Positions 6,001-51,965 of a stretch of 64,000 bases of DNA are shown piece by piece. The position numbers and the translations under genes are program-made. Within the stretch, counting starts at the first letter, position 1. Each line of letters opens with the position of its first letter. Origin of the DNA: a virus; IMG/VR virus record IMGVR_UViG_3300020045_002314, positions 26,193-90,192 of that record; one strand, written 5' to 3'. The notes below the pieces were generated by a model that worked only from the letters and a program-made list of their open reading frames with translations, was not told where the DNA came from and did not search any database.

Positions 6001-9000
6001 AAAGATGATAAAACTGAATATCGTGTAAATGTAGCACGTTATGAAAAACTATCAATCTTTATAATAGATGAATTATTTGTACAACCTGATAGTGAAATGC
6101 AAGAATTACTTACAGCGATGAATGAAGGTATTGATGGTAAACCTATAGACAGAATTATATTTGCATCAGGTAAGAAAGATGGTAACGTAAAAAGATATTC
6201 TATCTTTGATGAAAATGCTAAATTTAATAAAGATTTATTTAAAGCACAACCACATATTGTAGAAGATATACCAGTATCAAAATATAAAATACAATTAGAA
6301 GTACCTGATGATATTAGAGATAAAGAAATAAAAGTAGGAGTACAATTATATAAACATATAGCTAGTAATATAAATAATATACATTCTTACAAACCTTCTT
6401 TTTTAATTTCTAAAAATGATATATCAGGTAAACAATTAAAACAAGAACATCAAAATACATTTAGTTCTATAATTAAGAAACAATCAACTAATTTATTAAA
6501 AACATTATATGATAATTTAAATCTTAGAGATAATGCAGACCATACATTGATTTATAATAATTTAGTAAGAGCATTACAAGATAGAAATATACCTAATGAT
6601 ATTATTAAATCTATTAAATTAATTAATAAAAAGATTGTTACAGATTTAGGTGCTAATGGTATAAATGATAAAATAGTACCAGTTATTAATTCATTATTTA
6701 GAAATAATATAACAGATACTAAATTAGAAGGTGGACATACTGTTATTTTATCTGATGCTTTTTCTAATACAAGTTTAAAAGATGCAGAATATTCTGATGA
6801 TTTAAAATGTTATGCAGATGAAAATGGTAATTGGGTTGTAGAAGTATATATGCCTGTATGGAATTCTGAATTATTAGATGAATTAGGTAATCCAGTTGAT
6901 ATATCTAAATTAGATAATAAATTATTAAATGGGATTGGTTATCGTGTACCTATTACATCACAACATAGTATGGTTACATATAAAGTAAAAGGATTTACAC
7001 CTCCAACATCAGGTAGTGTAATTACATTACCTTCTAATTTAATAACACAAACAGGATGGGATTTTGATGTTGATAGTATTTATTTATTAACTAAAACCAT
7101 AAAGAAGATAAAAGGTAGATATTATGCTAATAGTTATAAACGTATAACTTATCAAGATTATTTAAATAATTCTATACTTGAAAATTATAACTTATCTGAA
7201 TTAACTGAAATATCAGCTAAATATATAAGTTTAGATTCTGAATTAAAAACATTAAATAAATCTTTAGATAATGCTGAATTAAAAACATCTACTAATTATA
7301 AAGAAAATTATAATAAATTACAATATCTATTAGAACGATATAATAAAGAGATAGATGTAGACAAAAAACAGAAGATGGAGAAAAGTCTATATAATTTAAG
7401 AGTTATGTTATTAATGGATGCTGCATTAGAAATAAATACAAATGTAGATGAAGAATTTAAATCTAAGTTTAAAACACTTAAAGATGAAAAAGATAAATAT
7501 TTTAAAGAGATAACTAAATTATTAATTAATAAAGGTTTAATTTATAAAGAAAGTAAGTTTGAAGAATTAGTTAAATCAGATATAACTACTGTACTTACTA
7601 TAGAACAATTACAAAATAGAATGATTGATATATGGACAGATATGTTAAGTCAAAATAATGGTTTTATAGCAATGGTTACATCTTCTACAATTAAACCTAA
7701 TGAATTAATTAGAGATGAAATAAATACTATATTTGAAAGTAATAAAGTAAGTAAAAGCCCTATATTAGCTAGTAATAATTTTAATACAAGAATTAATACA
7801 ACATCAGGAAAAGAGATGTTAGGTATTGCAGCTAATAGTGGTTCGATTATAACTATATTAGAAGAAGGTAGTGCAGTATTAAACTATGATTTACAAATAC
7901 CTTATTATATTGAATATAATGATGTAAATTTAAATAATGTACAAAATGATTATGGTAATTATGAAGTTATTACATTTAATAATCGTAAGTATATTAAAAC
8001 TAAATTTAAAAATATAGGTTGGAACGATAGTGGAGATACTAGAATGTTAACTAAATTATATGAAGATAATAACGATGTTGAATATACATATACTATTTCA
8101 GAATCTATAGGTTGGGATACAGACCATTCAGTAGATATTAATTCATCGTTAATGCCTAGAAATATAAATCGTAATACAATAGGTACTAATATTGCAGCTA
8201 AAATGTTGAAATTACCACCTAGATATATTACATTATTATTTAATCAAAAAATCATAGATGATATGTTAAATTTAATAAATAAACATAATCCTAATGATGG
8301 TAGATTAAATGCAAAAACAGCTATCGAAGATATTTATTTTACAATGTTATTTAAGAAATTAGCATATACTGATAATAAATTTAATAATAATGTTGAGTAT
8401 GTAGAAATGAATAGAGATTATATTAAACATAATACTGTATTATCGAATAAGTTATATAATGATAATAAAAGTGTATATGATATATTCAATATTGTAGATG
8501 AACCTTTTGATGAAGTTGATTTAAAAAACTTTATAATTGAAGGATTAGATATTCAAAAACAGCCAGTAGATAAACAAGTAGAGTTTATTAAGAAGCAACT
8601 TAATGTATTTAAAATGTATAAATATTTGAATAGTACATCAGAAGCAATGTTAGGTGAAACATCTAAAATGAATGCTGATAAAATAGATTCAGGTATAACA
8701 TTTGATGCTGTTACAGATTTAATTAAAGCTGTAGATAGTAAAGATAAAGTTGTTATATATACAAATACAGGTAAACCATTCTTAAAAGAATTATATAGTA
8801 ATCCTGATTTATATAAATTAATGTATACATATTATAAAGAAGGAGTTGAGAATTTATATAATATAGCTAAAGATTTATTTGGTTATTTAACACCTACTTT
8901 AAAAACTGAAATAGATGGATTCCATGAATTATATCCTTATGCTAGAAGAGAAGTTTATAAATTTATAAGAAGTATATATTATAGTATATATAAAGATTTT

Positions 9001-9840: not shown

Positions 9841-9850
9841 TTAAGTAATT

Positions 9851-12800
9851 ATGATTTGTCCTAATTTAAAAAACAAAGAAGTTAAAATAGAATTTATGAA
9901 GATTTCAAATCTTATAGGTAGTAACAATGCTTATAAGGTTTGGAATTTAAATAATGGTAATCCATTACATTTAAATTCAGATGGTAGCCCTAGTCAAACT
10001 TATAAAGATTTAATGAATAAGTTAATAAATGATGAAGAACTTGTTATTAAAAAGATAAGTGAAAATTTATTAAATAATGAAATAATTATTGAACCTAATG
10101 AACTTCAAAAACAATCATTTATAGCATTTAATGAAATAGCTACTGAACAATATACAAATAAAGTTAAAGATTTATTATTATATAATTTTAGTAAAATAGG
10201 TTTAAATAACATTAACGTAATAGCGGATACTACATTAAAAGATAATGCCAGTGTAGAGAAAATAGATGGTGTTATAACAATTAAATTCAATCCTAATAAA
10301 ATTAAAAACGATAGTATATTTCATGAATTTGGACATATCTATATAGACTTAATAGAAGATAAAGTATTTATACAAAATATTATAGATAAACTTAAAGGTA
10401 CTGATTTATGGTATAAAATAGCTTTATTATATCCTGAACTTACAGAAGAACAATTAGGTAAAGAAGTATTAACTACTGCTATAGGAATGAAAGCAAAAGA
10501 AATATATAATACAAGTGAAGATGTTTCATGGTGGAAATTTATAGTTAATTTAATTAAATCTAAGTTACAAGAATTATTTAATACTAAAGAACATCAAATT
10601 GAACAATTAGCTAATGATTTAATAACAGGTGATTTTAGTAAACAAATAAATCATAATTATGATATATTATTACAACATCAAAAAGATGCTATTGATATTA
10701 ATTCATTAAAAGATTGGACAGAAGCAATACAATCACAATCTAATAAACTACAATCGTTAATAAAACAATATAAAGATTTAGGTATAAGACCTGAGGAAGT
10801 TAATGATAGTATTAAAGTAAAAGCTAAATATGATAGATATTTAAATCATTTAAATAATACTAATTTAACTAATATGTTTGAAGCTTGTGTATCAATGTTA
10901 GAATTTGATAAAACAACTTTAATAACAGTAGAACAAGATATTGAAAAACTTAAAAAAGTATTTAATAAAAACTTTACACCTGAAACAATAACTTTAGATG
11001 AATTTAATTATTTAAATCAACGTATAAACTTTGCACGTAATTTTGTTAATTCAATAATTGATATATCTAATATAACAAATCCATTATTAGCTACAGATTT
11101 AGATTTTATTAATGGAGAATTATCTCAAGAAGAAGTTACATATATAAATAATATTAATAATTCATATTTAAAATTAATGCAATCTGTTGATATTAAAAGT
11201 TTTGATAGACGTGTTAAAGAAATTAATATGGTTTTAGATAAGTTTAGACAAATATCTATGACTTGGGTTTTACAATTAAGTAGTAATCCTAGATATGAAA
11301 AGTTTGAACAATCAGATTGGATGGATTTATATAAAACTGGATTAGTAGATGAAACAACAATGCAATTATATTTCGATTCTATATTTGATAGTAGTAATTC
11401 ATTCTTAGCTAATTTTGCTAAATATGAAATGTTTAATTATTCCTTTATGAATGATGAAATAAGAAGATTAAAAATAGAATTTAATAAACAATTAAAAACA
11501 GCAGGTGGAAATGATGTTTATGATAAGATTATAGAAAATGGTAGATTAATACAAAAATATAAATTTAGTGAATTTTGGACAGACTTAAATAAAGCTTTAA
11601 CAGAAGGTAATAAAAATGATGCATGGAATATTAAATTAAAGTATGCAAATATTGCTACACCTGATGAATTTAATAAAGCTATTGTTAATATGCGTTCTAA
11701 AGTTAAAGATGATTTAGATTTAAAACAAATGTCTGTAGAAGAAGCTAGTAATTATATTACAGAAGAAGAATGGAATCTATGGATTAAAGATAACTTTCAT
11801 CAAAAATCAGATGGTACTTATATACCTAGAATAGGAGGATTATATGCTTTACCTAAAGATACTTATATAAATCCTAAATGGGAAACGTTACAATCTAATC
11901 CTATAACTAAAGAATTTCATGGATATATGGTAGAATTAATGCGTAAACTTACAAGTCATGCTTCTAATTCACCACAGTATAAAGGTTATATGGCTGCTAT
12001 ATCTAAAACTAAATTAAATAAAGTAAAAGTAGAAAAGTTAGATGAAGAGTTTTCAGATATGGATGGTAATAAATTATATACTATCCCATTCCCATTTTTA
12101 GGTTATTTAAGTAATGAAACTAAAATACCAATTCGTCAACAAGTTACTGATGAAACAGATGAAATGTATGAAAAAAGTATAGTTGACTATGCTAATCTTT
12201 TATTTAAAGATAAAGTTGGATTTGTACCTTTTACAACATTAAAAGAAATATTAAAAGAAAATGATAATATTGAAAAACGTAATAAAGAATTTCATAAAGA
12301 ACACGTTAATACAGATTTAAAATATACAATGGATTTATTTATTGAATCAGCTATTACTAATAAATATAAAGCTAGAATGTATGATAGTGTTATGTTAGCA
12401 TTATATTCATTTGAAAATGATACATTAATAAATACAAATAATAAAGGTAAAAATGTTATTGATAAGTTAAAGTATGCAATAGGTTTAACAGATTCAGGAG
12501 AAATTAATAGACAACCAAACACCTATCTTACTAAAGGGGTCTTAACCAAATCAGCTAAACATCTTCGTAAAAAGATTGAAATGACTTTCTTTGATATGTT
12601 TACTAAACCTAATGATTATAATGATGTTCTACAAAAGTTTAAAAATTATACATCTTTAATTGGTATAGGTTTTAATGGTTTAGCAGCATTTAAAAATGTT
12701 ACATATGGTGGTTATATGTCATTAATAGAAAGTAGTTGTAAACAATTTATATCTTTTAAATCATTAGATAAAGGTGCTAGATTATATCATTCAGGATTAG

Positions 12801-14128
12801 TAGATTATTTCTCTACAATGAATAGTGAAACTAGTAATACTTTAGTAGGTGCTTTAATTAAACGCTTAAATATTATAGAAAACTATACAGACTTATTAGA
12901 AAAACAATCACCTAGTTTACATGAAAATAAATTACATAAATTATTTATATCTACAGCTTATGCAGGTACTACAATGGGTGAACATATGATGCATAATACT
13001 GTATTAATGGCTATGTTAAATGAGTATAAATTAATTGATGGTAAACTTACAAATTATAAAGATTATAGTAGGAAATTGATTAAAAAAACTGAAACAGATA
13101 ATATTGATGAAATTGATAAAAAAAACAAAGATTTATTAGATACATTCAATAATACACCTAGTTTAATAAATATGTTTGAATTAATAGATGGTGTAGCTGA
13201 AATTAAAAAAGATGAAAATGGTAAACCATTAATATCAGATATTCAATATGCTCAATTTAAATCATTAGTAAAAGGTGTTAATCAACATCTTCATGGTATT
13301 TATAATAAAGAAGATAAAGGTATTATTGAGAATAATGTTTTAGGTCAATTATTAATGCAATTTAGACATTGGATGCGACCAGGTTGGAATAAGAGGTTTA
13401 ATAGTAGAGGAGTACCATACATCTTTCAAATATGGAATAGTAAAGAATTTGGTGAAAATCAAAACTATTGGAATGAACGTAGAAATGTTGAATCTTATGG
13501 AGATTATAATAGTTTAACTAAAGCATTAACTAGTGGTATTAAAGAACAATATATTGAACATCTTAATAATAAAATAGTAGATAATAAATTAGGTAATAAA
13601 TCTTTAGCTATACTTTCAAGTATTTCATTAGGTATGTATAAACAAATAGTAAATGCTAGAATGTATTGGAATACAATGAATGATGAAGAAAAGTCAGGTG
13701 CTATAAGAGCAATTGCAGAATTAGGTATGGTTGCATTATTAATAACTGTTTATAGTTTAGCATTTGACGACGACGATGATGATAAATACTTTGGTAAAGA
13801 TTTTCTTATATATCAATTAGATGCTTCTATTACAGAGTTATTAAGTTATGTACCTTTATACGGATGGGTTAACGAAGGTCTTAAAGTAACTGCAAATCCT
13901 ACTGGAACATGGTCTACAATGTTAAAGTTATTTAAATTAACTAAAGAATTAGTAGAGTATCCATTTGTAAAAGAAGATGAACTTTATTATAAAAGAGGTG
14001 TACATAAAGGAGAATTACAATTAAAATGGATGTTTATAAACGTAGTACCAATTGGAGGACAAATAAATAGATGGATGAAGTTAGACGACCAAAACAAAGC
14101 ATATAAGCAATGGGGAATGCCACAATAG
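9851..14128 (+). CDS. Large virion/ejection protein with N-terminal zincin-like domain
   Basis: 1425 aa, directly after the RNAP gene. HEFGH (HExxH) motif and a C-terminal hydrophobic helix. Position is typical of crAss-like cargo proteins. Confidence 0.65.
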   Translation: MICPNLKNKEVKIEFMKISNLIGSNNAYKVWNLNNGNPLHLNSDGSPSQTYKDLMNKLINDEELVIKKISENLLNNEIIIEPNELQKQSFIAFNEIATEQYTNKVKDLLLYNFSKIGLNNINVIADTTLKDNASVEKIDGVITIKFNPNKIKNDSIFHEFGHIYIDLIEDKVFIQNIIDKLKGTDLWYKIALLYPELTEEQLGKEVLTTAIGMKAKEIYNTSEDVSWWKFIVNLIKSKLQELFNTKEHQIEQLANDLITGDFSKQINHNYDILLQHQKDAIDINSLKDWTEAIQSQSNKLQSLIKQYKDLGIRPEEVNDSIKVKAKYDRYLNHLNNTNLTNMFEACVSMLEFDKTTLITVEQDIEKLKKVFNKNFTPETITLDEFNYLNQRINFARNFVNSIIDISNITNPLLATDLDFINGELSQEEVTYINNINNSYLKLMQSVDIKSFDRRVKEINMVLDKFRQISMTWVLQLSSNPRYEKFEQSDWMDLYKTGLVDETTMQLYFDSIFDSSNSFLANFAKYEMFNYSFMNDEIRRLKIEFNKQLKTAGGNDVYDKIIENGRLIQKYKFSEFWTDLNKALTEGNKNDAWNIKLKYANIATPDEFNKAIVNMRSKVKDDLDLKQMSVEEASNYITEEEWNLWIKDNFHQKSDGTYIPRIGGLYALPKDTYINPKWETLQSNPITKEFHGYMVELMRKLTSHASNSPQYKGYMAAISKTKLNKVKVEKLDEEFSDMDGNKLYTIPFPFLGYLSNETKIPIRQQVTDETDEMYEKSIVDYANLLFKDKVGFVPFTTLKEILKENDNIEKRNKEFHKEHVNTDLKYTMDLFIESAITNKYKARMYDSVMLALYSFENDTLINTNNKGKNVIDKLKYAIGLTDSGEINRQPNTYLTKGVLTKSAKHLRKKIEMTFFDMFTKPNDYNDVLQKFKNYTSLIGIGFNGLAAFKNVTYGGYMSLIESSCKQFISFKSLDKGARLYHSGLVDYFSTMNSETSNTLVGALIKRLNIIENYTDLLEKQSPSLHENKLHKLFISTAYAGTTMGEHMMHNTVLMAMLNEYKLIDGKLTNYKDYSRKLIKKTETDNIDEIDKKNKDLLDTFNNTPSLINMFELIDGVAEIKKDENGKPLISDIQYAQFKSLVKGVNQHLHGIYNKEDKGIIENNVLGQLLMQFRHWMRPGWNKRFNSRGVPYIFQIWNSKEFGENQNYWNERRNVESYGDYNSLTKALTSGIKEQYIEHLNNKIVDNKLGNKSLAILSSISLGMYKQIVNARMYWNTMNDEEKSGAIRAIAELGMVALLITVYSLAFDDDDDDKYFGKDFLIYQLDASITELLSYVPLYGWVNEGLKVTANPTGTWSTMLKLFKLTKELVEYPFVKEDELYYKRGVHKGELQLKWMFINVVPIGGQINRWMKLDDQNKAYKQWGMPQ

Positions 14129-40547: not shown

Positions 40548-40577
40548 ATATTAAATATATAATTAATTATTTATATT

Positions 40578-40608
40578 TAAAAGGGGACTACTATCTTCAT
40601 CCCCTTTA
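40578..40608 (-). terminator. Terminator closing the tmRNA coding piece
   Basis: AAAGGGGA...TCCCCTTTT hairpin a few nt after the tag stop codon. Confidence 0.8.
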
Positions 40609-40879
40609 TAGTTCTTATGCAGCTGCTTTTACAGGTGCGAACATGAATTGATTACTGTTTCCAGTTATTGTTTACTTTAACTCTATTTATACATACTTCA
40701 AATGCTGTCAAAACCAAGATGCCCCTATTTAAATAAGAGTAGATATTTTACTACCTACTCTTTCAACATACGTTGTTGATTGACGTTCAATTGACAAACC
40801 TACTTAAAAGGTTGTGGAGCATTAGGGAATCGAACCCTAGTCCAAACATTAAGTATTATAACTTAACAAGTTAAAATAG
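40578..40879 (-). ncRNA. ssrA: Circularly permuted (two-piece) tmRNA
   Basis: Minus-strand order: acceptor piece ...GGAC-TAGGG-TTCGATT-CCCTA-ATGCTCC-A (ends 40815); then an 89-nt spacer; then the coding piece GGGGCAT-CTTGGTTTTGACAG (starts 40725). The 7-bp acceptor stem has G3:U70. ATAACT resume context, then tag ORF 40662-40615 encoding GNSNQFMFAPVKAAA*. Confidence 0.9.
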
Positions 40880-40940
40880 TAGGGATAGTAGGATTTGAAC
40901 CCACATCTTCGAGTGTAATAACCAGTTATACTATATCCCT
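40880..40940 (-). ncRNA. tRNA-like element lacking an anticodon arm
   Basis: AGGGATA/TATCCCT acceptor stem, TA, D-arm GTATAACTGGTTATTAC, only 10 nt (ACTCGAAGAT) before T-arm GTGGG-TTCAAAT-CCTAC, discriminator A. Confidence 0.7.
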
Positions 40941-40956
40941 TACCAATATTATATAC

Positions 40957-41484
40957 TTAACTTCTATTTCTAGTAGTAGGTATTTTAGGTTTTGGTAAAC
41001 CTTTAATCATTTCTTCAATTCTATTTAATTGTTCTTGTTGTTCTTTCTGCATCATCCACATTTCTTTTAATATAGTTTGGTCATTAACAACTTTATTAAT
41101 TGAAGCTAATACTTCAGAATTATCTTTATGTAAAGCTTCAATATTTTTAAACTGTGAAATTACAGAACTATGATTAGCTTTAAGTGTACTATTAAGATTA
41201 TTCTGATTAGTATCTAAAATATTAATAATTCTATCTCTAGATTTAATAACATTAGCATCAAGTAATTCAAACTTGTTTAATACAGTTTTTAACATATTAT
41301 CAATATAATTTCTCACATTGATTTTTACATTATTAATAATAGGTTCTAATAAATTATAATAATATTTATTAGATGCTTGAATACTATTTGAAATAGTAGT
41401 CTTACAGCCTTTAATATCAACTACAATTATAATTGTAGCTACAAGAACGAGTACTAAAATTAGTACATTTAGAAAATTTGTCAT
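40957..41484 (-). CDS. Membrane-anchored coiled-coil protein
   Basis: N-terminal TM helix followed by heptad-rich sequence. Confidence 0.6.
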   Translation of the reverse strand: MTNFLNVLILVLVLVATIIIVVDIKGCKTTISNSIQASNKYYYNLLEPIINNVKINVRNYIDNMLKTVLNKFELLDANVIKSRDRIINILDTNQNNLNSTLKANHSSVISQFKNIEALHKDNSEVLASINKVVNDQTILKEMWMMQKEQQEQLNRIEEMIKGLPKPKIPTTRNRS

Positions 41485-41542: not shown

Positions 41543-41968
41543 TTATTTTAATAAGTTTAAAATTTTAATTATATCTACAAGTATAGCTTTTTCATAAATA
41601 GTAGAATAGAATAAACCTATTGTGTCATTATCATCTTCTCTTAATACAGCTATATTAATTTCATCATGATATAAATTAATTTTAAATCCTTCAAAGTATA
41701 AAGTAGTTATTTTTAAACCACATATGTTATTTTCTATATTTAATAATTTACATTTATCTGATTTAAGGTATTTATGTAAAATCCTTCTATTTCTATAATA
41801 TTTATATTCAAAAAAGAAATCATAAAGTTTATTAAATACAAGACCAAACGTAAGTATCATTATAATTATAAATAATATTGTTAATAATAATTTTATTATT
41901 ATATTTAAATCTCTTATAAAAATTGTTTTCATATTGTTAAGTTTAAAGGTTTTGTTCAATCCATTCAT
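41543..41968 (-). CDS. Membrane protein; true start probably MKTIF
   Basis: N-terminal TM helix. Confidence 0.55.
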   Translation of the reverse strand: MNGLNKTFKLNNMKTIFIRDLNIIIKLLLTILFIIIMILTFGLVFNKLYDFFFEYKYYRNRRILHKYLKSDKCKLLNIENNICGLKITTLYFEGFKINLYHDEINIAVLREDDNDTIGLFYSTIYEKAILVDIIKILNLLK

Positions 41969-42644
41969 CTATATAATTAACAGGACATACTGTTTGTTTC
42001 TCAATATCATTAATATTTACACCAAATAAATGTAATAAATTAATAACTTCTTCTCTACTCCAACTATCTTTAATTGATTTAATTGTAATAGTATTATCTT
42101 TATCTCTCTTAAGTTCATAAGTAGTGTATTTACCAGTAGGGTCATTCATTTCTAAAAATTCATTATACTCAACCATAACTTTAGTAATAGGTTTACCATT
42201 ATTATAAGCTTCAATATAAGCTTTAATAAATTGAGTTGAAGGTTGTGGTAATTGACATCTACCAAGTATTTCATCATCTTTATCTTTATAAATTAAAGAT
42301 TTATCAGTAGTAGCAATGATTTTCTTACAATTATTTATATCAATAGATTGAATAGAAGAATTATATTTAATAATATCATTTTTTAATAAATCTTTATGAG
42401 ATTTAATTATTAATATATTATCACCATCTTTAATTTCTTCATCAGAAGTAATATAAAGATGTTGAGAACTTAAATTACTATTTTTTAAATACGCTTGAGT
42501 AAAGTATTTATTATTAAAATATTCTAAATGTTTACTACCACGTAAATTTAGTAATAGTAAAGCATTATCAGCTACATTAGTAGTAACCATAACTACTTCA
42601 GCAGGTTTATAATACCTACCATTAATTTCTTTTAACTGTGCCAT
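41943..42644 (-). CDS. Hypothetical phage protein
   Basis: 233 aa containing QHLYITSDEEIKDGD...KKIIATTD...LPQPS. Confidence 0.65.
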   Translation of the reverse strand: MAQLKEINGRYYKPAEVVMVTTNVADNALLLLNLRGSKHLEYFNNKYFTQAYLKNSNLSSQHLYITSDEEIKDGDNILIIKSHKDLLKNDIIKYNSSIQSIDINNCKKIIATTDKSLIYKDKDDEILGRCQLPQPSTQFIKAYIEAYNNGKPITKVMVEYNEFLEMNDPTGKYTTYELKRDKDNTITIKSIKDSWSREEVINLLHLFGVNINDIEKQTVCPVNYIDEWIEQNL

Positions 42645-42674
42645 TGGTCTTTAGTTTTAAGATTAATAATTTAT

Positions 42675-42863
42675 TTAATTATAATAACAATCATCATTTT
42701 CATCTAAAGAATAATATAAACTTTTACCAAATTGTTTTTGTTGTTCATATTCTTGTTCATGTAATTTTCTATTGCTATAATATATTCTAGCACTTTCTTT
42801 ATTTTCAGCTTTTCTTGATTTAGCTTTGTTTATTTGTTTACGAACTGATTCTCTCCAACCCAT
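42675..42863 (-). CDS. Hypothetical protein
   Basis: 62-aa ORF. Confidence 0.5.
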   Translation of the reverse strand: MGWRESVRKQINKAKSRKAENKESARIYYSNRKLHEQEYEQQKQFGKSLYYSLDENDDCYYN

Positions 42864-42895
42864 TATATTTATTTTTAAGATTAATAATTTAATTA

Positions 42896-43845
42896 AAATA
42901 AGTGAAATTAATAATAATTAAGATTGTACTTCATATAGTAAGAGTTTTTACTAATATATAACTCAGCCCCTATGTTCCTATAATTACGTTTGGCTTGAAC
43001 TTATCTTTATTATTAATATTCACTTATTCTGTAATATCTCCTAGTATCTCTACTAGGTCGCACAATGCAAACTTTGTTGCTACTATACTTATATTACTAT
43101 AAGTAAGGCATAATTATAACTTTGTTCCTAAGATTACGTCTAATCTTATTTAAGTAGGTACTCAACCATATTTAATTATGCTGCCACCATTATAAATTAA
43201 ATTATTAACTATAATAATTGATAATTTATAACTTTATATTACTCTACCTAACAATATTAGGTATGTATTATAAGCACGGCATTATAACCAATAGTAATGG
43301 TATTCACTTCCTGCCGTATGTACTACTTCATATACTCTTGCTAATATATGGTACAAGTTAAAACTTCTTTATAATTAATGTAATCGTGTCATAATATTTA
43401 GTATTAGTTAATTATAAACATATACTTATGTTTATTTTATATCCAATATGCAAATACGATTATATAAATTTATTATTATTATATCTATAAATACTTCTTT
43501 ATAGTAAGTTGCAGTACTAGTTGTAGTACATTTTGCATTAACACTTGATTGTTAAGAAAGCTTTATATTACAAATATAATTAATAACATCTCTTGCTATT
43601 CTAGTAATAACTACAGGATACTACCTTAGAGAATTAGTAGTTACGCCTATCTCATACCTAGACAGATAATATAATTCTAACATATTATGGTGTAAAACAG
43701 TGACACCATGCAGTAGTGGAGTTTCCAAATGAGTTGTGCAATCTGTAAATACATTATAATTTCTTTTACTAGAAAAAAGAATAATATAAACAACCCATAT
43801 AATTATAATTACCTGCATGATAAACATTCCTAGTTTAACCATACA
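42896..43845 (-). ncRNA. Candidate large (~950 nt) highly structured non-coding RNA
   Basis: More than 15 nested or adjacent helices in a nearly ORF-free region; GNRA tetraloops, G:U pairs and an AGUA/GAA module all read correctly on the minus strand. Confidence 0.6.
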
Positions 43846-43860
43846 ATTAATTTAAAGTAA

Positions 43861-44046
43861 TTATTTATCTTTAATGTCAAAATATCCAACTATACTACCA
43901 AGACCTGTTACAGCAGCAGCAGTATAAATTATTTCAGCTTTACCAATTGGTTCCCAATTACAAGTAACAGCTTTATATATACAACGACATTCACCATATA
44001 TTATAGCTATGGTAAAAATAAATAATACTATTGATTTTGTTTTCAT
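43861..44046 (-). CDS. Small membrane protein
   Basis: 61 aa with two hydrophobic segments. Confidence 0.6.
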   Translation of the reverse strand: MKTKSIVLFIFTIAIIYGECRCIYKAVTCNWEPIGKAEIIYTAAAVTGLGSIVGYFDIKDK

Positions 44047-44061
44047 ATGTATAAGTTTAAA

Positions 44062-44406
44062 TTAATTAATATATTCATTTTCTTCACTTCTTTCTAAATC
44101 AATATGGTATTTAATAACTTTAATAACTCTATTGATTATATAGACAATAAATAATAAAATTATAAAACCAATTAAATAAGTAAGTAAAGGTGATATACCA
44201 TATGATACTTCAACTGCTTCACAAGATGTTAAAGATATTAATAGTACAATTGGCATAAATTTATTAAGTTCAATACCATTTTTAAAAACACTTTTAATAT
44301 TATCAAGTATAACACCTAATAAATAAATAAGTATAAATAAAGGCATTAGTAATCCTATAATTATTGAAGTTAAATGTTTTACAATAAAATTTAATAATCT
44401 CTTCAT
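44062..44406 (-). CDS. Membrane protein
   Basis: Three hydrophobic segments and an internal LTSC lipobox-like motif. Confidence 0.55.
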   Translation of the reverse strand: MKRLLNFIVKHLTSIIIGLLMPLFILIYLLGVILDNIKSVFKNGIELNKFMPIVLLISLTSCEAVEVSYGISPLLTYLIGFIILLFIVYIINRVIKVIKYHIDLERSEENEYIN

Positions 44407-44417
44407 GATATTTTATA

Positions 44418-44768
44418 TTAAAATGAATACTCTAGTTTGACATTAGGTGATGTAGTTATATTACTATATATGTTTTTAACTAATACTCCATCTACATATA
44501 ATTTAATAGTAATTTTATGAGCTGTTGTAGAAGTATAATAAGCATTAATATAATAATTAAAATGTTCAGGATATTCATCTTCTATTGTATATACACCTGA
44601 TTGTATATTCATATTATATAAACTAATATTACCATCTTCAGGACTTGAATAAATAATATTACAAGTAGATTGAGAAGTATATATTTCAGCTTTTACAATA
44701 TGTGTATTAGAATCTTTCTTACAACTAAATAATAATAGTAATAAGAATATAATTAATAGTTTCTTCAT
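44418..44768 (-). CDS. Lipoprotein
   Basis: MKKLLIIFLLLLLFSC-KKD, a Bacteroidota-type lipoprotein signal. Confidence 0.75.
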   Translation of the reverse strand: MKKLLIIFLLLLLFSCKKDSNTHIVKAEIYTSQSTCNIIYSSPEDGNISLYNMNIQSGVYTIEDEYPEHFNYYINAYYTSTTAHKITIKLYVDGVLVKNIYSNITTSPNVKLEYSF

Positions 44769-44773
44769 AATAA

Positions 44774-45022
44774 TTAAAATTTATGTAAATCTTGTTGTGT
44801 ATAACCTTTTGTAATTGCAAGTACAACTAAATGTATAAAAGATGATAAAAGATATAATATAATATATAATGGATACATACATATTTCGATGTAAGAATCT
44901 ACTATATTATATATTCTATTTAATAATCTTAAAAGTTTCTTTGTAGCATAATTTGTTAATATACCAATAACTAGTAATATTACAAATGCTATTACTAAAT
45001 AAATAATAATAAATGTTGTCAT
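44774..45022 (-). CDS. Small membrane protein
   Basis: Two TM helices. Confidence 0.55.
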   Translation of the reverse strand: MTTFIIIYLVIAFVILLVIGILTNYATKKLLRLLNRIYNIVDSYIEICMYPLYIILYLLSSFIHLVVLAITKGYTQQDLHKF

Positions 45023-45309
45023 GATTGTTGTGATTTAAGTTTTTTAATAAGACGAGTTAAATATGCTTTACGTAAAGGTTTGTTACGAGGTTTAAAATAA
45101 TACATACTAACTTTATAATATTGTGTAGGGTTTATATCTATTATTGCTCTAATGTTACTACATTCCTGTATTGTAACTATATTATGAAAATATAAGTCAG
45201 TACTTAATTTACATAATCCTGTAACTAAATGTTTATCTATATTATCTCTTAATATAGTTAATAATTCTATATCTGTTCTCATAATTATTTTTAAATGTAT
45301 ATTTATCAA
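45019..45309 (-). CDS. Hypothetical protein; start probably MRTDIE
   Basis: ORF overlapping its neighbours. Confidence 0.5.
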   Translation of the reverse strand: MINIHLKIIMRTDIELLTILRDNIDKHLVTGLCKLSTDLYFHNIVTIQECSNIRAIIDINPTQYYKVSMYYFKPRNKPLRKAYLTRLIKKLKSQQS

Positions 45310-45541
45310 TACTATCTAATTGTAATTGTGTTAATTGTACATAATAATTTTTAATCATTAATGTAACAATAGGTGTAGGTATTATATCTCCATTACTATC
45401 GTAAAATATAGTTTGATTGTTAATAGGTTTAGATATAATAGTAGAATTAGATTTATTATTTAAAGAGTGAACTCCTATATATGTATATAATACAATCATA
45501 GTATATATAAATATTGCAATAAATGTTTTAATAAAAGACAT
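45242..45541 (-). CDS. Membrane-anchored hypothetical protein
   Basis: N-terminal TM helix. Confidence 0.5.
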   Translation of the reverse strand: MSFIKTFIAIFIYTMIVLYTYIGVHSLNNKSNSTIISKPINNQTIFYDSNGDIIPTPIVTLMIKNYYVQLTQLQLDSIDKYTFKNNYENRYRIINYIKR

Positions 45542-45833
45542 AATGAATTGTTTTAAATAAAATGAATAAAATAATAAATTGATAAATAAGTATATAAAAA
45601 TATAAATAAAATAATTAATAGTTCTAATACTGCTAGTCTTATAAATTATAAATATAATATAAAATGGTAAATAGTATATTTAGAGAATTTATTTTAGGAC
45701 TGTAATGTGACACCTATATTAATTATTTTAATATTGTTATATGTAATAAAAAAAAGATAAATAAAAGATAAATAAATAAAATATATTAATAATGTAAAAT
45801 ATATAGAATTTATATAAAATATAAAGCTGATGA

Positions 45834-46076
45834 TTAATAAAGATGAGTGTTAGTAAATCTATTTATTATATTTTTACATCCTAATAAATCTTCAATAGTT
45901 TTAATACCTTGTGAAGAATTATCTAATGCTTCTATTTTAGTATCTAAAGGTAATAGATATACAAGAGGATTAAATATAGTAATTTCTATTTCTTTGTTAC
46001 CTATTCCCCTACGATGTGCAATTTCTATAGTTTCAGATATAGGTTTAGGTATGTAAATTCCAAATGTTGTTGACAT
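45834..46076 (-). CDS. Hypothetical protein
   Basis: ATG at 46076 (MSTTFG...) is a better start than the track's upstream start. Confidence 0.6.
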   Translation of the reverse strand: MSTTFGIYIPKPISETIEIAHRRGIGNKEIEITIFNPLVYLLPLDTKIEALDNSSQGIKTIEDLLGCKNIINRFTNTHLY

Positions 46077-46254
46077 AATAAATAAATTTAAATAATTAAT
46101 AAAATAAAAAAAATACACGCTTTATATTAAATACCTATAATAATAATAGTTTATAAACTAAACGACACAATGTCTTTCACATATAGTTTAATATATTGTC
46201 ACTTATAAAGCGGTATTTTATAGAGTAAATATAAATAAATAAAAATAATTAATA

Positions 46255-46434
46255 TTAAATAGTATAAAGAATTAATGCACGAATTGGAAATAAAGTATAT
46301 TGTTTAGTATTACTACTATAAGAAGAAGCATATTTTAATATAGTTATAGAAGTTATTTTAGCATTACGATTAAGTAATAATTGAATGTTATCTTCTAATG
46401 AACCATCGTGGTCGTTATAATCCCAGTATTTCAT
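46255..46434 (-). CDS. Small hypothetical protein (59 aa, not in ORF track)
   Basis: MKYWDYNDHDGSLEDNIQLLLNRN...LYTI*. Confidence 0.45.
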   Translation of the reverse strand: MKYWDYNDHDGSLEDNIQLLLNRNAKITSITILKYASSYSSNTKQYTLFPIRALILYTI

Positions 46435-46474
46435 AGTTATTAAAATTTAAAAAGTTAAAAAGTTATTAAAATAA

Positions 46475-46648
46475 TTAATAAAGATAAAATAGCACTATTA
46501 TTAATAACCAATCTATAATATATAATATTGTTACTAATTTATAAGTAATTTTAAAATTAGATAAATATAATTTTAAACATAGTAATTTAAATATAATTGA
46601 AAATATTGCTATTAAAGCTGATGCTAAAAGTATTGTTGTAATAGTCAT
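46475..46648 (-). CDS. Small membrane protein (57 aa, not in ORF track)
   Basis: MTITTILLASALIAIFSIIF...WLLIIVLFYLY*, two TM segments. Confidence 0.45.
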   Translation of the reverse strand: MTITTILLASALIAIFSIIFKLLCLKLYLSNFKITYKLVTILYIIDWLLIIVLFYLY

Positions 46649-47131
46649 AATATTAAATATAATGTAAATAAATATTAAAATAAATATAAAATAATTAATA
46701 AAGATAAGTAAGGATGAAAGACACTGTTAAAGAAATATAGGATAGAATAGAAGGATTTAATGAAATATTTAGTAGTATAGATAGTGGTGCATCTTCACAA
46801 TCACTTAATGTTTCTTAAAATAATTATACAATCATACGATAATATTTCCGAAACATTCACTTTATACAAATCATTTAATTTCTAAAACATTATAAATAAC
46901 ATTCCCTTCTTTACTACATTATTATAAAATAACTACATTTAATATCTTACTAAACATAACTATACACACATTATAATAATCTTCATTAAATCAATATAAA
47001 TAATATTTAATACTACCTATACATCATTCTATTCTACCTATATTATCTTCATCATTATTAACCTAAAACTTCATCTTTTTTATATTATGTATCAAATGTT
47101 TCTAGATGTTCTGTAAGCCCATAAAAACAAC

Positions 47132-47164
47132 AAAGAGTTGCACTCGTAATAAGCACAACTCTTT
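47132..47164 (-). terminator. Intrinsic terminator
   Basis: AAAGAGTTG...CAACTCTTT hairpin downstream of 47172. Confidence 0.7.
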
Positions 47165-47171
47165 CTGTTTG

Positions 47172-47615
47172 TTAACCATTAGCTGCAAGATTAGCTGCAT
47201 ACTGTTCGGCATTAATACGTTTTTGACTTAACTCAAACGTAATAAAGTCTTCAGGTACAAGACCAGAATAAGAATATTCCAATTCACTTCCGTCTTCACC
47301 TGTGATAACATTACCTAATTTATCTGTAATTTTATCATGCTCGTTCACTGGTGCAAACAAACCTGTAATACTACTTTTAATAAGGTGTTGAGGTTTAAAA
47401 GTGAATTCATCCATTCCACTATTCTTCAAATCTATAGCGAAAGCTTTTTCATTTCTTGGTATAACTACTTTTTTACCATTTTCAGTAACAGCATTAATAA
47501 GATAGTATGAACGTGGTTTGCCGTTCTTATCTGTACTTGTCAATAAGCTACTAACATTTAGTACAGTCAAATCCATAAGTTTAAATTCCATTGTTGTAAA
47601 TTTATAATTAAACAT
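47172..47615 (-). CDS. Hypothetical early protein; start probably MEFKL
   Basis: 147-aa ORF with its own terminator. Confidence 0.65.
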   Translation of the reverse strand: MFNYKFTTMEFKLMDLTVLNVSSLLTSTDKNGKPRSYYLINAVTENGKKVVIPRNEKAFAIDLKNSGMDEFTFKPQHLIKSSITGLFAPVNEHDKITDKLGNVITGEDGSELEYSYSGLVPEDFITFELSQKRINAEQYAANLAANG

Positions 47616-47666
47616 TTAATAACATCAATTACCATGACTTTTCTATGTGCGAATTATTAAAAAAAA

Positions 47667-47697
47667 TAAGTTGTTATACATTACATACAACAACTTA
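47667..47697 (-). terminator. Intrinsic terminator
   Basis: TAAGTTGTT...AACAACTTA hairpin followed by a T tract on the minus strand. Confidence 0.6.
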
Positions 47698-47709
47698 CTT
47701 TAATATACT

Positions 47710-48018
47710 TTAAAAATTATTATGAGTAAGTATTTTACTACTCTCTAATAATTGTTTAGATATAGCTTGAAATCTTACTTTACCTAATACATTGTTATCA
47801 GCATTAATAACTTTACACCATTGATTAAATACTTTATCATTAGGTGCGAATTCAAACCCTGATATAACAATAACATTACGTCTTACCTTTTCGTAACGTA
47901 TAAGTCTTACTACATAATTACATACGAAACCTAATTCATCTGTAATATCAATTGTAAAGATTCTAGCTGTTCTACCTGAACCTTTACCTTGTCCTGTTGC
48001 TATTTTGATTATACTCAT
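47710..48018 (-). CDS. Hypothetical protein
   Basis: 102-aa ORF. Confidence 0.6.
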   Translation of the reverse strand: MSIIKIATGQGKGSGRTARIFTIDITDELGFVCNYVVRLIRYEKVRRNVIVISGFEFAPNDKVFNQWCKVINADNNVLGKVRFQAISKQLLESSKILTHNNF

Positions 48019-48083
48019 ATGATTAAGGTTTATTCCATACTACCTTTAAAGACCTTAGTTGTTACTCAAAGGACATGACTTAT

Positions 48084-48320
48084 CTATGTCCTATATCTTA
48101 TACTAACATATATTAATAATACTGCTTTAATCAACATAAGTATAAGAACTAAATCGAATAATATAGTTCTTGCATACTTTAATATATCTATGTTAAGAAT
48201 ATTGTACAACATATACATATCTATTAACATTAAGATAAAAATAGTTATAAGAATGATAGTTAATTGTTTCATAATTAATAAGATTAGATGTGTATAATAA
48301 AGCGACAATTCTCTGTACAA
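48084..48320 (-). CDS. Small membrane protein; start probably MKQLT
   Basis: Two TM helices. Confidence 0.5.
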   Translation of the reverse strand: MYRELSLYYTHLILLIMKQLTIILITIFILMLIDMYMLYNILNIDILKYARTILFDLVLILMLIKAVLLIYVSIRYRT

Positions 48321-48795
48321 TTTATGAATTCCTAATACGATGTTTCAAAATAATTGTTGACGGGAGGTATTTCACTTCAAATACCATGAGTGTCCTATGT
48401 GCGAGGTGGTTCTCTAATACAATTTTTTACAGTATAAATTGAACGTATTAAAATATTAATATAAGACCTTCTCTTTAACTTCCTATTAATCCTTCACTAA
48501 CTTTTATAAAACTTCGTCCTTATCTTTCTAAAGGGGTCTTTTAAAAATCTATAAAAAGGGTGTACCTAGATACCTTACCTCATCTTTTAAATTAACTCTT
48601 TAACCTTCTACTAATTCTTCTATTAATATCTTTATTTTATTATATATTTTACTATATCTTTTTACATTATTAAATATACCTATAAATCTTATTATTTTTG
48701 TATATATTACAAGATTATTAAATATTTATATAAATTTATATATTAATTTACAAATGTTAAAAAATGTTAAAAGATTAATAATAATTACAGATATA

Positions 48796-48827
48796 TTTGC
48801 TTTGTATTGAAAAAAAGGTTAGCTTTG
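48796..48827 (+). promoter_or_regulatory. Bacteroidota-type promoter, distal, for the structural module
   Basis: TTTG-N20-TAGCTTTG. Confidence 0.55.
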
Positions 48828-48996
48828 TGCATTCTTAAAGCAAACAGCAAGCTATATAAACAATTTTACACCTTATTATATATAGCATTCAATTTTCTAA
48901 AATCTTTCATTAAATAATCTAATTTTATAAAATATCATTAAGATATTGTAATATATAATAAAAATTATTATATTTATAAAAAAAATACATTATTTA

Positions 48997-49029
48997 CTTG
49001 ACAATGTATATACAATTAGATTACATTTG
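48997..49029 (+). promoter_or_regulatory. Bacteroidota-type promoter, proximal, for the structural module
   Basis: cTTG-N21-TACATTTG, ~50 nt upstream of ATG 49081. Confidence 0.6.
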
Positions 49030-49080
49030 TCTTACAATTAAAAACAACTAAAATTATAACACTAATTAAAAATTCAAACA

Positions 49081-49728
49081 ATGGAATTAAAATTAAATGA
49101 TTATTTTACACTAACTATAATTGAAAAAGATAATACTGTTAAATCAGATATTATAGTAGGAGTAGATACAAATATTAAAATACCAAAAGGTGGAACTGCT
49201 AAAGAACAACTTTTAGTTACAGATAAAGGTATTGAAATATCTAAAGTAGATAAAGTATCAGCACAGACTTCTAATAGAAATAGAATGGCTGTTAAAAATG
49301 TAAATGATTATGATGTTAATTTAAATATTGATGTAGAAAGTTTTAAACAATGGTTAGATAAAGACTTTATATTAAAAGATACTAATTATGTAATCGTTGA
49401 AAGAAAAGTATATATATCTATGATAGATGTATATCACCAAGCTAGAATAGGTGAATTTCCTGAAAGAGTAATTAGAGGTGTAGAAAATACAATTATTAAA
49501 TCTACAACTCCTGAATTAGTAGGAAAGAAATATATTGTAGGAATGATGGATGCTGATAGAATTTTAGATAAACAATTTAATCAAGTTGGAACAATAGCAT
49601 TAGTAGATTTTATTAATACACTTCATCCATCTGATAAATTGTTATTAGCACAGTGTAAACATTTAGAGAATTTAGTTATATCTGATTTCTATACTTTAAA
49701 TGTTACACATATTGTAGGAACTTATTAA
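49081..49728 (+). CDS. Hypothetical protein, first gene of the late module
   Basis: 215-aa ORF. Confidence 0.65.
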   Translation: MELKLNDYFTLTIIEKDNTVKSDIIVGVDTNIKIPKGGTAKEQLLVTDKGIEISKVDKVSAQTSNRNRMAVKNVNDYDVNLNIDVESFKQWLDKDFILKDTNYVIVERKVYISMIDVYHQARIGEFPERVIRGVENTIIKSTTPELVGKKYIVGMMDADRILDKQFNQVGTIALVDFINTLHPSDKLLLAQCKHLENLVISDFYTLNVTHIVGTY

Positions 49729-49746
49729 ACTTTAAATAAGCTAATT

Positions 49747-50325
49747 ATGTTAATTGATTATGATGTAGAAGTAAATAGTAAGATTGGTATTATAAACAAA
49801 TATACAACCAATCCTGAATTAGAATATCTTAATTTAAATCCTAAAGGTAGGAATGTACAAACAGAATCAAGAGAATCTATAACACTTAATAATGTTATCA
49901 ATCTTACTATTTCAAAATTTGATAATATCAAAGCATCTACAGATAAGCAAGATATACAAGAATTAGAAAGAATTAAATCTTTAGATAATGCTGATAAATA
50001 CTTTTTAATTAAGGAATTATTAAGATTTCAAGCATGGGTTGTTAGAAAATATATTTATAAGAATATAAATATAAGTTTACCAAAGTTAGGTACATTTGTA
50101 TTTAATCATTATAAAATGATAGCAATAAATGTAACAGATAAATTTAAAGATATTGAAGATTATGATATACATAATTTAATAAAAGGTGAATTTAAAAAAC
50201 ATTATGATTTACAACAAGAATATAAAATGTTAAAGAAATCAAGTTTTAATTTTACACCACTTACAGGTATTAATTTATTAAATTATAATGTAGATATTAA
50301 ACCAACATTTATTAAATATTATTAA
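49747..50325 (+). CDS. Possible HU/IHF-like DNA-binding protein
   Basis: NISLPKLGTF resembles the HU/IHF beta-strand signature; similar genes lie near the terminase in crAss-like phages. Confidence 0.4.
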   Translation: MLIDYDVEVNSKIGIINKYTTNPELEYLNLNPKGRNVQTESRESITLNNVINLTISKFDNIKASTDKQDIQELERIKSLDNADKYFLIKELLRFQAWVVRKYIYKNINISLPKLGTFVFNHYKMIAINVTDKFKDIEDYDIHNLIKGEFKKHYDLQQEYKMLKKSSFNFTPLTGINLLNYNVDIKPTFIKYY

Positions 50326-50326
50326 A

Positions 50327-50977
50327 ATGTTAGATGTATTAACACCAAATACAGGAAGTTATATTATAAACTTAGATAGTGGAAGTGCTACTGTTAGCCT
50401 TCCACTTTTAGTTAAAGAAATAAGGGACGTATATAATAAATATAAAAATAAAGATGAAGCTTTAAAATATATTTCCTATGCTTTATATATGAAACATTAT
50501 AGAAGTGAAGGAAATATACAAGGGCTTACAGAAAATGAAAAACATAAACGTGCTTGTTATAATTTAGAACTACCAAATGAATATAAACCAACAGAGGATA
50601 TAATTCAATTAATGGAGTATATTAATTATGACATGACTAAAGGTATTTATGGTTTATTAATTCAAACTAATAAGAATTTTGAATTAACTAGACAAACTGT
50701 AGTATTATTAAATAAAGCTTCTGAAATTCAATTAGAAGCTATTACTGCAATATTAGATAAAAATGTAATAACAAAAGAAGAAGCAATTCAGTTATCTACA
50801 GCTAGTAAAGAATTATTAGGTAATTTAAAAGAAGCTAGAAATTTAAATTTAACACTAGATGGAGATATTAAAGTATATAAAGAATTAGTTGCTAAATTAA
50901 TTAAGACTGAAACAAATATTGCATTAGCACATGGTGGAGGTCAAATACCTGAAACTGCAATTCCTAGAAGAAAATAA
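50327..50977 (+). CDS. Hypothetical packaging-module protein
   Basis: 216 aa, helical, upstream of the nuclease and terminase. Confidence 0.55.
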   Translation: MLDVLTPNTGSYIINLDSGSATVSLPLLVKEIRDVYNKYKNKDEALKYISYALYMKHYRSEGNIQGLTENEKHKRACYNLELPNEYKPTEDIIQLMEYINYDMTKGIYGLLIQTNKNFELTRQTVVLLNKASEIQLEAITAILDKNVITKEEAIQLSTASKELLGNLKEARNLNLTLDGDIKVYKELVAKLIKTETNIALAHGGGQIPETAIPRRK

Positions 50978-50978
50978 T

Positions 50979-51965
50979 ATGGATTATTCAAATTTTAAAT
51001 TAAAATTCAATCCTGACTTCCATAAATATATAGATAATAATGGTGGAGTATATACAAGTATGACTACTGTTATTGGTAAATATGTTCCTAAGTTTGAAAG
51101 TGAAAAAGTAGCTTTAGCTTGTAGTCGTAAACGTGGACATAGATATTATGGTAAATCAGTAAAAGAAATATTAGAGATTTGGGGTGAATATACAGATGTT
51201 GCTTTAGAAAAAGGTAATAGAACTCATAATCATTTAGAATCAATTGTTAAACAATCTACTAATTTTAAATTTGTAGAAGTAATAGATTCTAAAAAATATC
51301 AAACTTTATATACAATTACAGATGTATTAACAGGAGAACATAAAGGTATCTTAGATGTTGATTTATTCTTAGGTTCAGGTATTAAAGATAAATATCCTAG
51401 AATTTATAGATTGTTTATGAAGTTACATGAAATGGGTTATTCATTCTTTAGTGAATTAGGTGTATTTTCATTAGAACATTATATATCAGGATTAATAGAT
51501 ATTATTGCTATTAATCTTACAACTAAAACATTTATTATAGTTGACTGGAAAACTAATAAAGATAAATTAATACCATTAAGTAATTATTCATTAAGATTAA
51601 AAAGTGGTTATTATGAAAAAGATAAGTTTGGTAATCAAACTGAAAATTATATATTCACAAATAAGAAATTCCATAGTCCTTTAATACAACTTGAAACATC
51701 TACTTATAATAAGTATAATCTACAATTATCAGGTTATGCAAATTTAGCTAGTAGATTTGGATTAACTTGTGAAGGATTATATCTATGTCATATATTAGAA
51801 AATTATAAGTATTCTGAAACAGATATTGAAGTTCAAAGATTTAATGATTTATTAGGTAAAGATAGAACTGATATTTATGAAATGGAAGATTATAATCCTT
51901 ATGTTATACAAATGTTTAATCATTTTAAAACTACAAACCAATTTCAATCAGTATTACAATTATGA
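50979..51965 (+). CDS. PD-(D/E)xK nuclease
   Basis: H.Y...Y.SMTTVI, GN.TH, SGLID...IVDWKT, Y.LQLS.Y; ATG at 50979 follows the upstream stop. Confidence 0.8.
   Translation: MDYSNFKLKFNPDFHKYIDNNGGVYTSMTTVIGKYVPKFESEKVALACSRKRGHRYYGKSVKEILEIWGEYTDVALEKGNRTHNHLESIVKQSTNFKFVEVIDSKKYQTLYTITDVLTGEHKGILDVDLFLGSGIKDKYPRIYRLFMKLHEMGYSFFSELGVFSLEHYISGLIDIIAINLTTKTFIIVDWKTNKDKLIPLSNYSLRLKSGYYEKDKFGNQTENYIFTNKKFHSPLIQLETSTYNKYNLQLSGYANLASRFGLTCEGLYLCHILENYKYSETDIEVQRFNDLLGKDRTDIYEMEDYNPYVIQMFNHFKTTNQFQSVLQL

Follow-up and report, generated by a model that had tools for sequence, protein, structure and literature searches.

An anticodon-less tRNA-like gene in front of a two-piece tmRNA in a crAss-like phage: a candidate transcript-processing signal

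A 61-nt gene on the minus strand of a crAss-like phage genome (40880..40940) has the acceptor, D and T arms of a tRNA, has no anticodon arm, and lies immediately in front of a permuted, two-piece tmRNA. Positions, unless given for another locus, are those of the window, the 64,000-nt stretch of DNA that was analysed, which comprises bases 26193-90192 of a 90,192-bp virus record. We propose, with moderate confidence, that this mini-tRNA serves as tRNA-derived punctuation, at which cleavage by RNase P and RNase Z here frees the precursor of the tmRNA. It is the acceptor, D and T parts of a tRNA that are recognised by RNase P, RNase Z and the CCA-adding enzyme; the anticodon arm is needed only for decoding. 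The punctuation role was rated the most likely because the parts that have been kept are the ones that these enzymes read, and because such elements always lie directly ahead of a sequence for which a 5' end has to be made.

The Rfam model RF00005 matches the minus strand from 40940 to 40880 over its complete length (model positions 1-71) with 46.0 bits (E 1.3e-6; the gathering score is 29 bits), and the alignment has 2 nt in place of the 15 model positions of the anticodon arm. The acceptor stem (AGGGAUA/UAUCCCU) consists of 7 Watson-Crick pairs and is followed by a discriminator A. U8 and A9 are both present, and the D stem (GUAU/UUAC) has three pairs and a U.U, with GG within the loop AACUGGUUA. 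A linker of 10 nt, ACUCGAAGAU, stands at the site of the anticodon and variable regions, and the T stem (GUGGG/CCUAC, with one G.U) carries the loop UUCAAAU. CCA is not encoded; the next nucleotides are CUA. The elbow nucleotides are complete, with equivalents of U8-A14, A15-U48, G18 and G19 with the T loop, and T54-A58, at positions that we take to correspond to those of standard tRNA numbering. The preliminary description had read the same anatomy from the letters (a 61-nt element with a perfect 7-bp acceptor stem, a D-arm with GG, a canonical T-arm and a 10-nt gap), and the RF00005 match and the sequence bear it out. Compared with a functional decoder, the acceptor, D and T arms with their conserved loop nucleotides are all in place, and the 7-nt anticodon loop and its stem are absent.

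ARAGORN makes no tRNA call at the mini-tRNA, and among eight candidates scored in the whole 90,192-bp genome it is the single RF00005 match. The evidence for the gene is this profile match and not stability, since its folding energy is unremarkable against shuffled sequences (z -0.67). Its GC content (37.7%) is in the top 2% of 61-nt windows in DNA of 23.4% GC. Two covariance models were built, R1 from the window element alone and R2 from the mini forms of the window, cr60_1 and G020, and the element scores 97.2 and 72.3 bits with them, respectively.

The neighbouring permuted tmRNA is real. RF04321 (permuted tmRNA) matches from 40863 to 40615 with 50.2 bits, above its cut-off of 47; ARAGORN calls a permuted tmRNA with the tag GNSNQFMFAPVKAAA, which ends in VKAAA before the stop; and the acceptor stem GGGGCAU (40725-40719)/AUGCUCC (40822-40816) has the G3:U70 pair. 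From the RF04321 alignment, the sequence and the minimum free energy (MFE) fold, the acceptor piece is predicted at 40815..40879 (minus strand), with the 5' strand of the inter-piece helix, the T arm, AUGCUCC and a discriminator A (40815). The RF04321 insert between the 3' and 5' acceptor strands (40726..40814, minus strand) is an intervening segment that is predicted to be excised and that folds as local hairpins in the MFE structure. The coding piece, predicted at 40575..40725 (minus strand) from RF04321, the ARAGORN tag and the sequence, contains the 5' acceptor strand, a D-loop analogue, the 3' strand of the inter-piece helix, the tag frame and a closing hairpin. The tag frame runs from 40662 to 40615 (ARAGORN gene positions 245-292) and stops at TAA. 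CCA is encoded neither here nor in the four other phage permuted tmRNAs that were read for it (L104-L107).

When 40960->40570 is folded as a whole (MFE, z -3.0), the mini-tRNA forms a structure of its own. The long inter-piece helix opens with an 11-bp helix, whose 5' strand (40868..40878, minus strand) pairs with 40683-40673 and begins 2 nt past the discriminator of the mini-tRNA, so the element abuts the helix, as had been noticed before; the RF04321 model itself starts 16 nt after the mini-tRNA. Only 10 nt separate the end of the helix (40673) from the resume codon (40662), which leaves no room for a first pseudoknot and makes this a minimal tmRNA. A hairpin, AAAGGGGA-12 nt-UCCCCUUU, followed by a short U run (40579..40607, minus strand; from the sequence and MFE pairing), forms a terminator-like end of the unit. 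The terminator scan called no terminator, and it passed over this hairpin because the loop is longer than 8 nt. The span that ARAGORN gives for the tmRNA (40906->40524) overlaps the T arm of the mini-tRNA and was read as a generous upstream margin, since in three annotated loci (L001-L003), too, the ARAGORN call begins 33-36 nt ahead of the Rfam match.

The layout is consistent with the following pathway. The mini-tRNA would be transcribed in a long minus-strand transcript behind a 175-aa ORF (40957..41484, minus strand, from the ORF list), which has an N-terminal hydrophobic helix and a stop codon 16 nt before the mini-tRNA, and with which it is probably co-transcribed. The RNA would fold with its acceptor and T arms stacked and its D-loop/T-loop elbow intact, and would be excised by the host enzymes of tRNA maturation. 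RNase P, cutting at the 5' end (~40940/40941), would detach the upstream mRNA. RNase Z would be expected to cut after the discriminator (40880/40879), as CCA is not encoded, and with this cut the tmRNA acceptor piece would begin 1-2 nt ahead of the inter-piece helix. The remaining ends of the tmRNA would be made by the same enzymes, with RNase Z cleavage and CCA addition at 40815 and RNase P cleavage at 40725, and the unit would end at the hairpin (40579..40607). In the accessible part of one report, permuted tmRNA transcripts are described as cleaved by tRNA processing enzymes (PMC11915505).

When the 61 nt were searched by BLAST among GenBank phages, the single match was crAssphage ctbg_1, in which 85% of the element is covered in two pieces. 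The ctbg_1 element (L110 1499-1607) is a 109-nt RF00005 match of 56.2 bits with arms about 90% identical to those in the window. G2-C71 of the window is replaced by C2-G71, a compensatory change, and pair 51:63 is A-U instead of G.U. At the anticodon site there is a stem with a 44-nt loop, an insert of 50 nt. The element receives no ARAGORN call, has no tmRNA adjacent to it and is followed by a terminator-like hairpin. The likeness of the two elements points to common descent and not to two captures of a host tRNA, since the 5' half of the mini-tRNA has neither a match in the genome collection nor a true relative among the pattern hits described below. With terminases that are only 40% identical, the window and ctbg_1 phages keep one tRNA shell, in neither case with a normal anticodon loop. 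A MAFFT alignment that placed the window D arm on an inner, D-arm-like stretch of the ctbg_1 insert was set aside for the covariance-model alignments.

Searches for closer relatives covered IMG/VR, metagenomes, proteins and prokaryote genomes. Exact patterns of the tmRNA and of the mini-tRNA found three unrelated loci and no locus in IMG/VR, and both neighbour proteins and the terminase found no IMG/VR relative. The best homologue of a 233-aa neighbour protein among 5.8 billion proteins is 45-49% identical. With the D-arm pattern, 14 IMG/VR loci were obtained, which are ordinary tRNAs or chance matches in coding sequence. The T-arm/acceptor pattern gave 47 IMG/VR loci, mostly normal tRNAs (many of them tRNA-Pro-like), together with two copies of a 100-nt tRNA-like element and one tRNA-Leu of record G001. 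The pattern of the 5' half hit 47 JGI metagenome loci with no relative among them, and these 24-25 nt have no match in a collection of 185,579 prokaryote species with one genome each; the pattern of the Buchavirus mini-tRNA, described next, likewise has no match in that collection.

Independent elements of the same architecture are present in three other crAss-like lineages. Model R2 was run on 79 whole records, namely 75 of the 81 records G000-G080 (G007, G019, G023, G026, G043 and G050 were left out for their size) and four GenBank genomes, and gave 37 matches in 21 records. Those that are full-length and no longer than 66 nt are in the window, Buchavirus cr60_1 (58 nt), G020 (65 nt) and G069 (59 nt), the last of which lies outside the training set and scores 43 bits; the scan also returned two short sub-alignments inside longer tRNA-like genes. 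On 14 further GenBank crAss genomes there were eight matches, two of them 58-nt elements (Buchavirus cr109_1 and cr113_1). Clean mini-tRNAs thus number six records from four lineages among the 79 and 14 records, and the class is sporadic. With RF00005 on 50 records, three of the 150 matches listed are both full-length and no longer than 66 nt (G018, 64 nt; G020, 65 and 66 nt), at 20-30 bits.

All mini-tRNAs sit between genes of the same strand. The Buchavirus element lies 20 nt before the ATG of the DNA polymerase gene in all three genomes, the G020 element 39 nt upstream of a homologue (L174 1631-2251) of the 233-aa family (phrog_15656), and the G069 element 11 nt after a stop codon and about 62 nt before a same-strand ATG. 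The ORF that ends before the G069 element (L173 944-1150, minus strand) encodes 68 aa, with a very basic N-terminal half and four Cys. Stem sequences differ completely between the lineages, the discriminators are A, U, C and A, and the third acceptor pair outside the window is C-G or G-C.

Structure-preserving evolution is seen within Buchavirus. Over 173 nt, cr109_1 and cr113_1 differ at two positions only, which pair with each other in the T stem, as G-C in one phage and A-U in the other. In cr60_1 the sequence upstream of the mini-tRNA cannot be aligned, and the element and the polymerase leader are kept. Across seven mini-tRNAs, pairing holds in 95.5% of the cells and both partners vary in 14 of the 16 pairs, in an alignment that was fitted to the model, in which three of the seven rows (window, cr60_1 and G020) trained that model and the three Buchavirus rows are near-identical, and in which differences between lineages may come from different parent tRNAs. 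None of 500 shuffles reaches the observed pairing, and slid controls give 43-51%.

Eight crAss-like permuted-tmRNA loci, the window included, were read for tRNAs. Three Suoliviridae genomes (L001-L003) carry an annotated permuted tmRNA, one (cr114_1, locus L001 1476-1794) with a tRNA-His in the intervening segment and two with a tRNA just downstream; the tmRNA of L002 is immediately followed by an ARAGORN tRNA call with a 2-nt anticodon. Strong RAGATH-9, RAGATH-20 and RAGATH-22 RNAs occur a few hundred nt upstream of the Suoliviridae tmRNA loci. Eighty IMG/VR loci were gathered through an alignment of the 233-aa family, and RF04321 exceeded its cut-off in none of 50 and in three of 30 IMG/VR records. 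The tmRNAs of L104 and L106 are within a tRNA cluster, and those of L105 and L107 have no adjacent tRNA. At L106 (record G069) the distance from the end of a normal tRNA-Arg(ACG) to the RF04321 start is 17 nt, compared with 16 nt for the window element, and the inter-piece helix starts 3-5 nt after the tRNA-Arg. This tRNA shares with the mini-tRNA its place before the tmRNA and the lack of an encoded CCA, and differs in having a normal anticodon arm, with which it is able to decode. A tRNA placed before the acceptor piece is one recurring arrangement. It is not required, as nothing tRNA-like precedes the permuted tmRNA of L104, L105 or L107.

These comparisons support one part of the processing-signal idea put forward in the preliminary description, in which the tmRNA acceptor piece gets its 5' end from cleavage at the 3' end of the mini-tRNA, and not another. 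The intact arms, the missing CCA, the 16-nt and 2-nt spacings and the tRNA-Arg of G069 in the same place agree with it, but the linkage to a tmRNA is not a conserved trait, as no tmRNA lies next to the ctbg_1 element or to any of the mini-tRNAs in Buchavirus, G020 and G069. Nothing speaks specifically for the alternative in the preliminary description, a decoy for tRNA-targeting defence nucleases or uncharged-tRNA sensors.

Among the other explanations, an inert relic is unlikely, though it deserves serious weight. A tRNA next to the tmRNA would have lost its anticodon arm by a deletion on the scale of 13 nt, and the gene would be a pseudogene that has not yet decayed, with any processing incidental. 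A tRNA ancestor is to be expected at this spot, since tRNAs flank or lie inside the permuted tmRNA at five of the eight crAss-like loci including the window (L001, L002, L003, L104 and L106). The phage has no other tRNA, which is consistent with the loss of a tRNA set. The IMG/VR, metagenome and protein searches found no close relative that would show retention in the window lineage, and weaker, partly degraded short tRNA-like matches do exist elsewhere (G018, 30.4 bits with two acceptor mismatches and no GG; a second site in G020). In the window element, however, all stems and elbow nucleotides are intact in a genome of 23% GC, and the deletion takes just the arm, with the 26/44 junction closed by a short cap. 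In ctbg_1, too, the homologue has no normal anticodon loop, has kept its arms and carries a compensatory change, and the same architecture recurs in other lineages, again with a compensatory change in one. tRNA pseudogenes normally carry scattered stem mismatches. The mini-tRNA resembles them in being tRNA-derived and unable to decode, whereas it misses one arm with the rest perfect and has analogous elements that are conserved elsewhere. We infer that the window element is kept by selection and is not just the product of a recent deletion.

It is doubtful that the mini-tRNA is a mimic acting in trans, be it as an uncleavable competitor for anticodon nucleases or defence proteins, as a ligand of SmpB, EF-Tu or the CCA enzyme, or as the substrate of an anticodon-independent synthetase. 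A73, A15-U48 and the intact elbow are elements that LeuRS uses, and the Aquifex enzyme tolerates loss of the anticodon stem-loop: according to the accessible part of the source, deletion of the whole stem-loop lowers affinity only 2.5-fold, with A73 and the D/T tertiary structure being crucial (PMC2377443). The best normal tRNA found by R1 is the tRNA-Leu(UAA) of G001, whose 3' acceptor strand is identical and whose T arm is nearly so. A leucine origin is only a resemblance, G3-C70 excludes alanine identity, and no single synthetase would fit the mini-tRNAs because their discriminators differ.

A phage precedent for such a mimic, and in structure the nearest known RNA, is the tmRNA without a coding sequence, consisting of the tRNA-like domain (TLD) only. 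From the available parts of two sources, TLD-only tmRNAs occur in mycobacteriophage DS6A, some mitochondria and plastids, and a molecule similar to that of DS6A strongly inhibits tmRNA, perhaps by titrating SmpB (PMC4131195, PMC11915505). Like the mini-tRNA, a TLD-only tmRNA is a phage-encoded RNA of ~60-65 nt with an acceptor and a T arm, no anticodon and no message. Its two hallmarks, a G3:U70 pair and a D-loop analogue without a D stem, are both missing from the mini-tRNA, which has G3-C70 and a true D stem with GG and stands beside a complete tmRNA. Titration of SmpB would, moreover, hurt that adjacent tmRNA of the phage itself, and no gene of a partner protein is adjacent, the neighbouring proteins having no informative PHROG or Pfam family and none of them being Cys-rich. 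Decidedly improbable, in our view, is a wider form of the idea, in which phages of the crAss group would keep a class of mini-tRNAs that are released by RNase P and RNase Z, CCA-tailed and perhaps charged by an anticodon-blind synthetase, and that act in trans; in the window phage the mimic would work together with the minimal tmRNA, the two reprogramming host ribosome rescue or blunting tRNA-directed defence. Processing would then be merely how the mimic is made.

That the true genome has a full tRNA, whose anticodon arm was dropped in sequencing or assembly, is hardly credible: the record was met once only, as one contig, but the genome is closed with terminal repeats, the deletion junction is neither a repeat nor a homopolymer, and the same architecture is found in independent assemblies including the three GenBank Buchavirus genomes.

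A role as transcript punctuation, the reading that we prefer, would have counterparts outside the bacteriophages, as tRNA-like punctuation devices are known from organelles, archaea and a herpesvirus. In function the nearest known systems are the t-elements, mascRNA and the herpesviral TMERs. The t-elements are tRNA-like processing signals of plant mitochondria and haloarchaea. They and the mini-tRNA have in common a non-decoding, tRNA-like fold. In t-elements it stands at the boundary of another RNA, whose end it is taken to form by bringing in RNase P and RNase Z; the mini-tRNA has the predicted start of the tmRNA helix 2 nt downstream, and other mini-tRNAs have an ATG 20-62 nt downstream. 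The coaxial acceptor/T-arm fold without decoding that marks a t-element is found here (RF00005 match, fold, no CCA). The mini-tRNA differs from them in belonging to a bacteriophage, in having a full D arm and elbow and not just an acceptor/T minihelix, and in the predicted cleavage, which would release a two-piece tmRNA. MALAT1 mascRNA and, in murine gammaherpesvirus 68, the tRNA-like/pre-miRNA units known as TMERs are tRNA look-alikes of ~60 nt that are cut by RNase P and RNase Z, the cut making the end of a linked non-coding RNA. Unlike the mini-tRNA, they are eukaryotic and nuclear, mascRNA keeps a small anticodon-like arm, and the sequences are unrelated.

In the literature, no anticodon-less tRNA-like genes were found described for crAss-like phages and no tRNA-like transcript punctuation for bacteriophages; one preprint, in its accessible part, mentions only low-scoring pseudo-tRNAs. 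Three things are new here: a mini-tRNA paired with a minimal two-piece tmRNA, its homologue in ctbg_1, and the compensatory change of the Buchavirus element. If the punctuation reading is correct, crAss-like phages carve long transcripts with cut-down tRNAs, and all four ends of the two-piece tmRNA would be matured by host tRNA enzymes alone. Phage annotation loses such genes because tRNA finders miss them or file them as pseudo-tRNAs. The window and ctbg_1 elements, and the Buchavirus element before the DNA polymerase gene, are concrete substrates for RNase P and RNase Z assays.

The virus record has direct terminal repeats and is rated complete, with a GC content of 19-29% and about 23% overall. 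Among the genes in the window are those of a portal protein, a family-B-like DNA polymerase and a terminase of the crAss type. No GenBank phage has a terminase more than 39.9% identical to this one (ctbg_1 being the best match); Intestiviridae crAss-like phages score best and Suoliviridae come next at ~27%, and the window phage is thus a deep, so far single-member branch of the Crassvirales. All genes from ~43.8 kb down to 14.2 kb are on the minus strand with short gaps. The 175-aa ORF before the mini-tRNA has no PHROG match and no Pfam match above the cut-off, and the gene of the conserved 233-aa family (phrog_15656) lies 1 kb upstream of the mini-tRNA (41943-42644). A promoter scan found 38 promoters with 39.6 expected and is uninformative in AT-rich DNA.

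Within the minus-strand array, 757 nt (42864-43620) have no minus-strand ORF of at least 40 aa; the plus strand has one 47-aa ORF there, the repeats are short and imperfect only, and an Rfam scan of 42600-51000 gave no match. On the plus strand of 1-14128 there is a pair of giant ORFs, of 1425 aa and of at least 3279 aa, the longer being open at the window start; both presumably encode crAss-type virion proteins.

Further tRNA shells were noted in the loci that were read. Together with the ctbg_1 element, L125 310-409 and L147 are tRNA-shell RNAs of 100-109 nt with normal acceptor, D and T arms, in which a long stem with a 27-44-nt loop replaces the anticodon arm; they are unannotated and have no ARAGORN call. 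Directly after the tmRNA of L104 (1352-1470, minus strand) there is a 119-nt tRNA match of 55.8 bits, which a weak YrlA match (29 bits) overlaps; its anticodon loop carries an insert of ~45 nt with a T-arm-like hairpin inside. In a crAss-like contig (L102 307-548, record G044), two tandem matches to Dictyostelium Class I RNA (37 and 29 bits) are followed by a YrlA-like tRNA-mimic match (35.9 bits), all below the cut-off.
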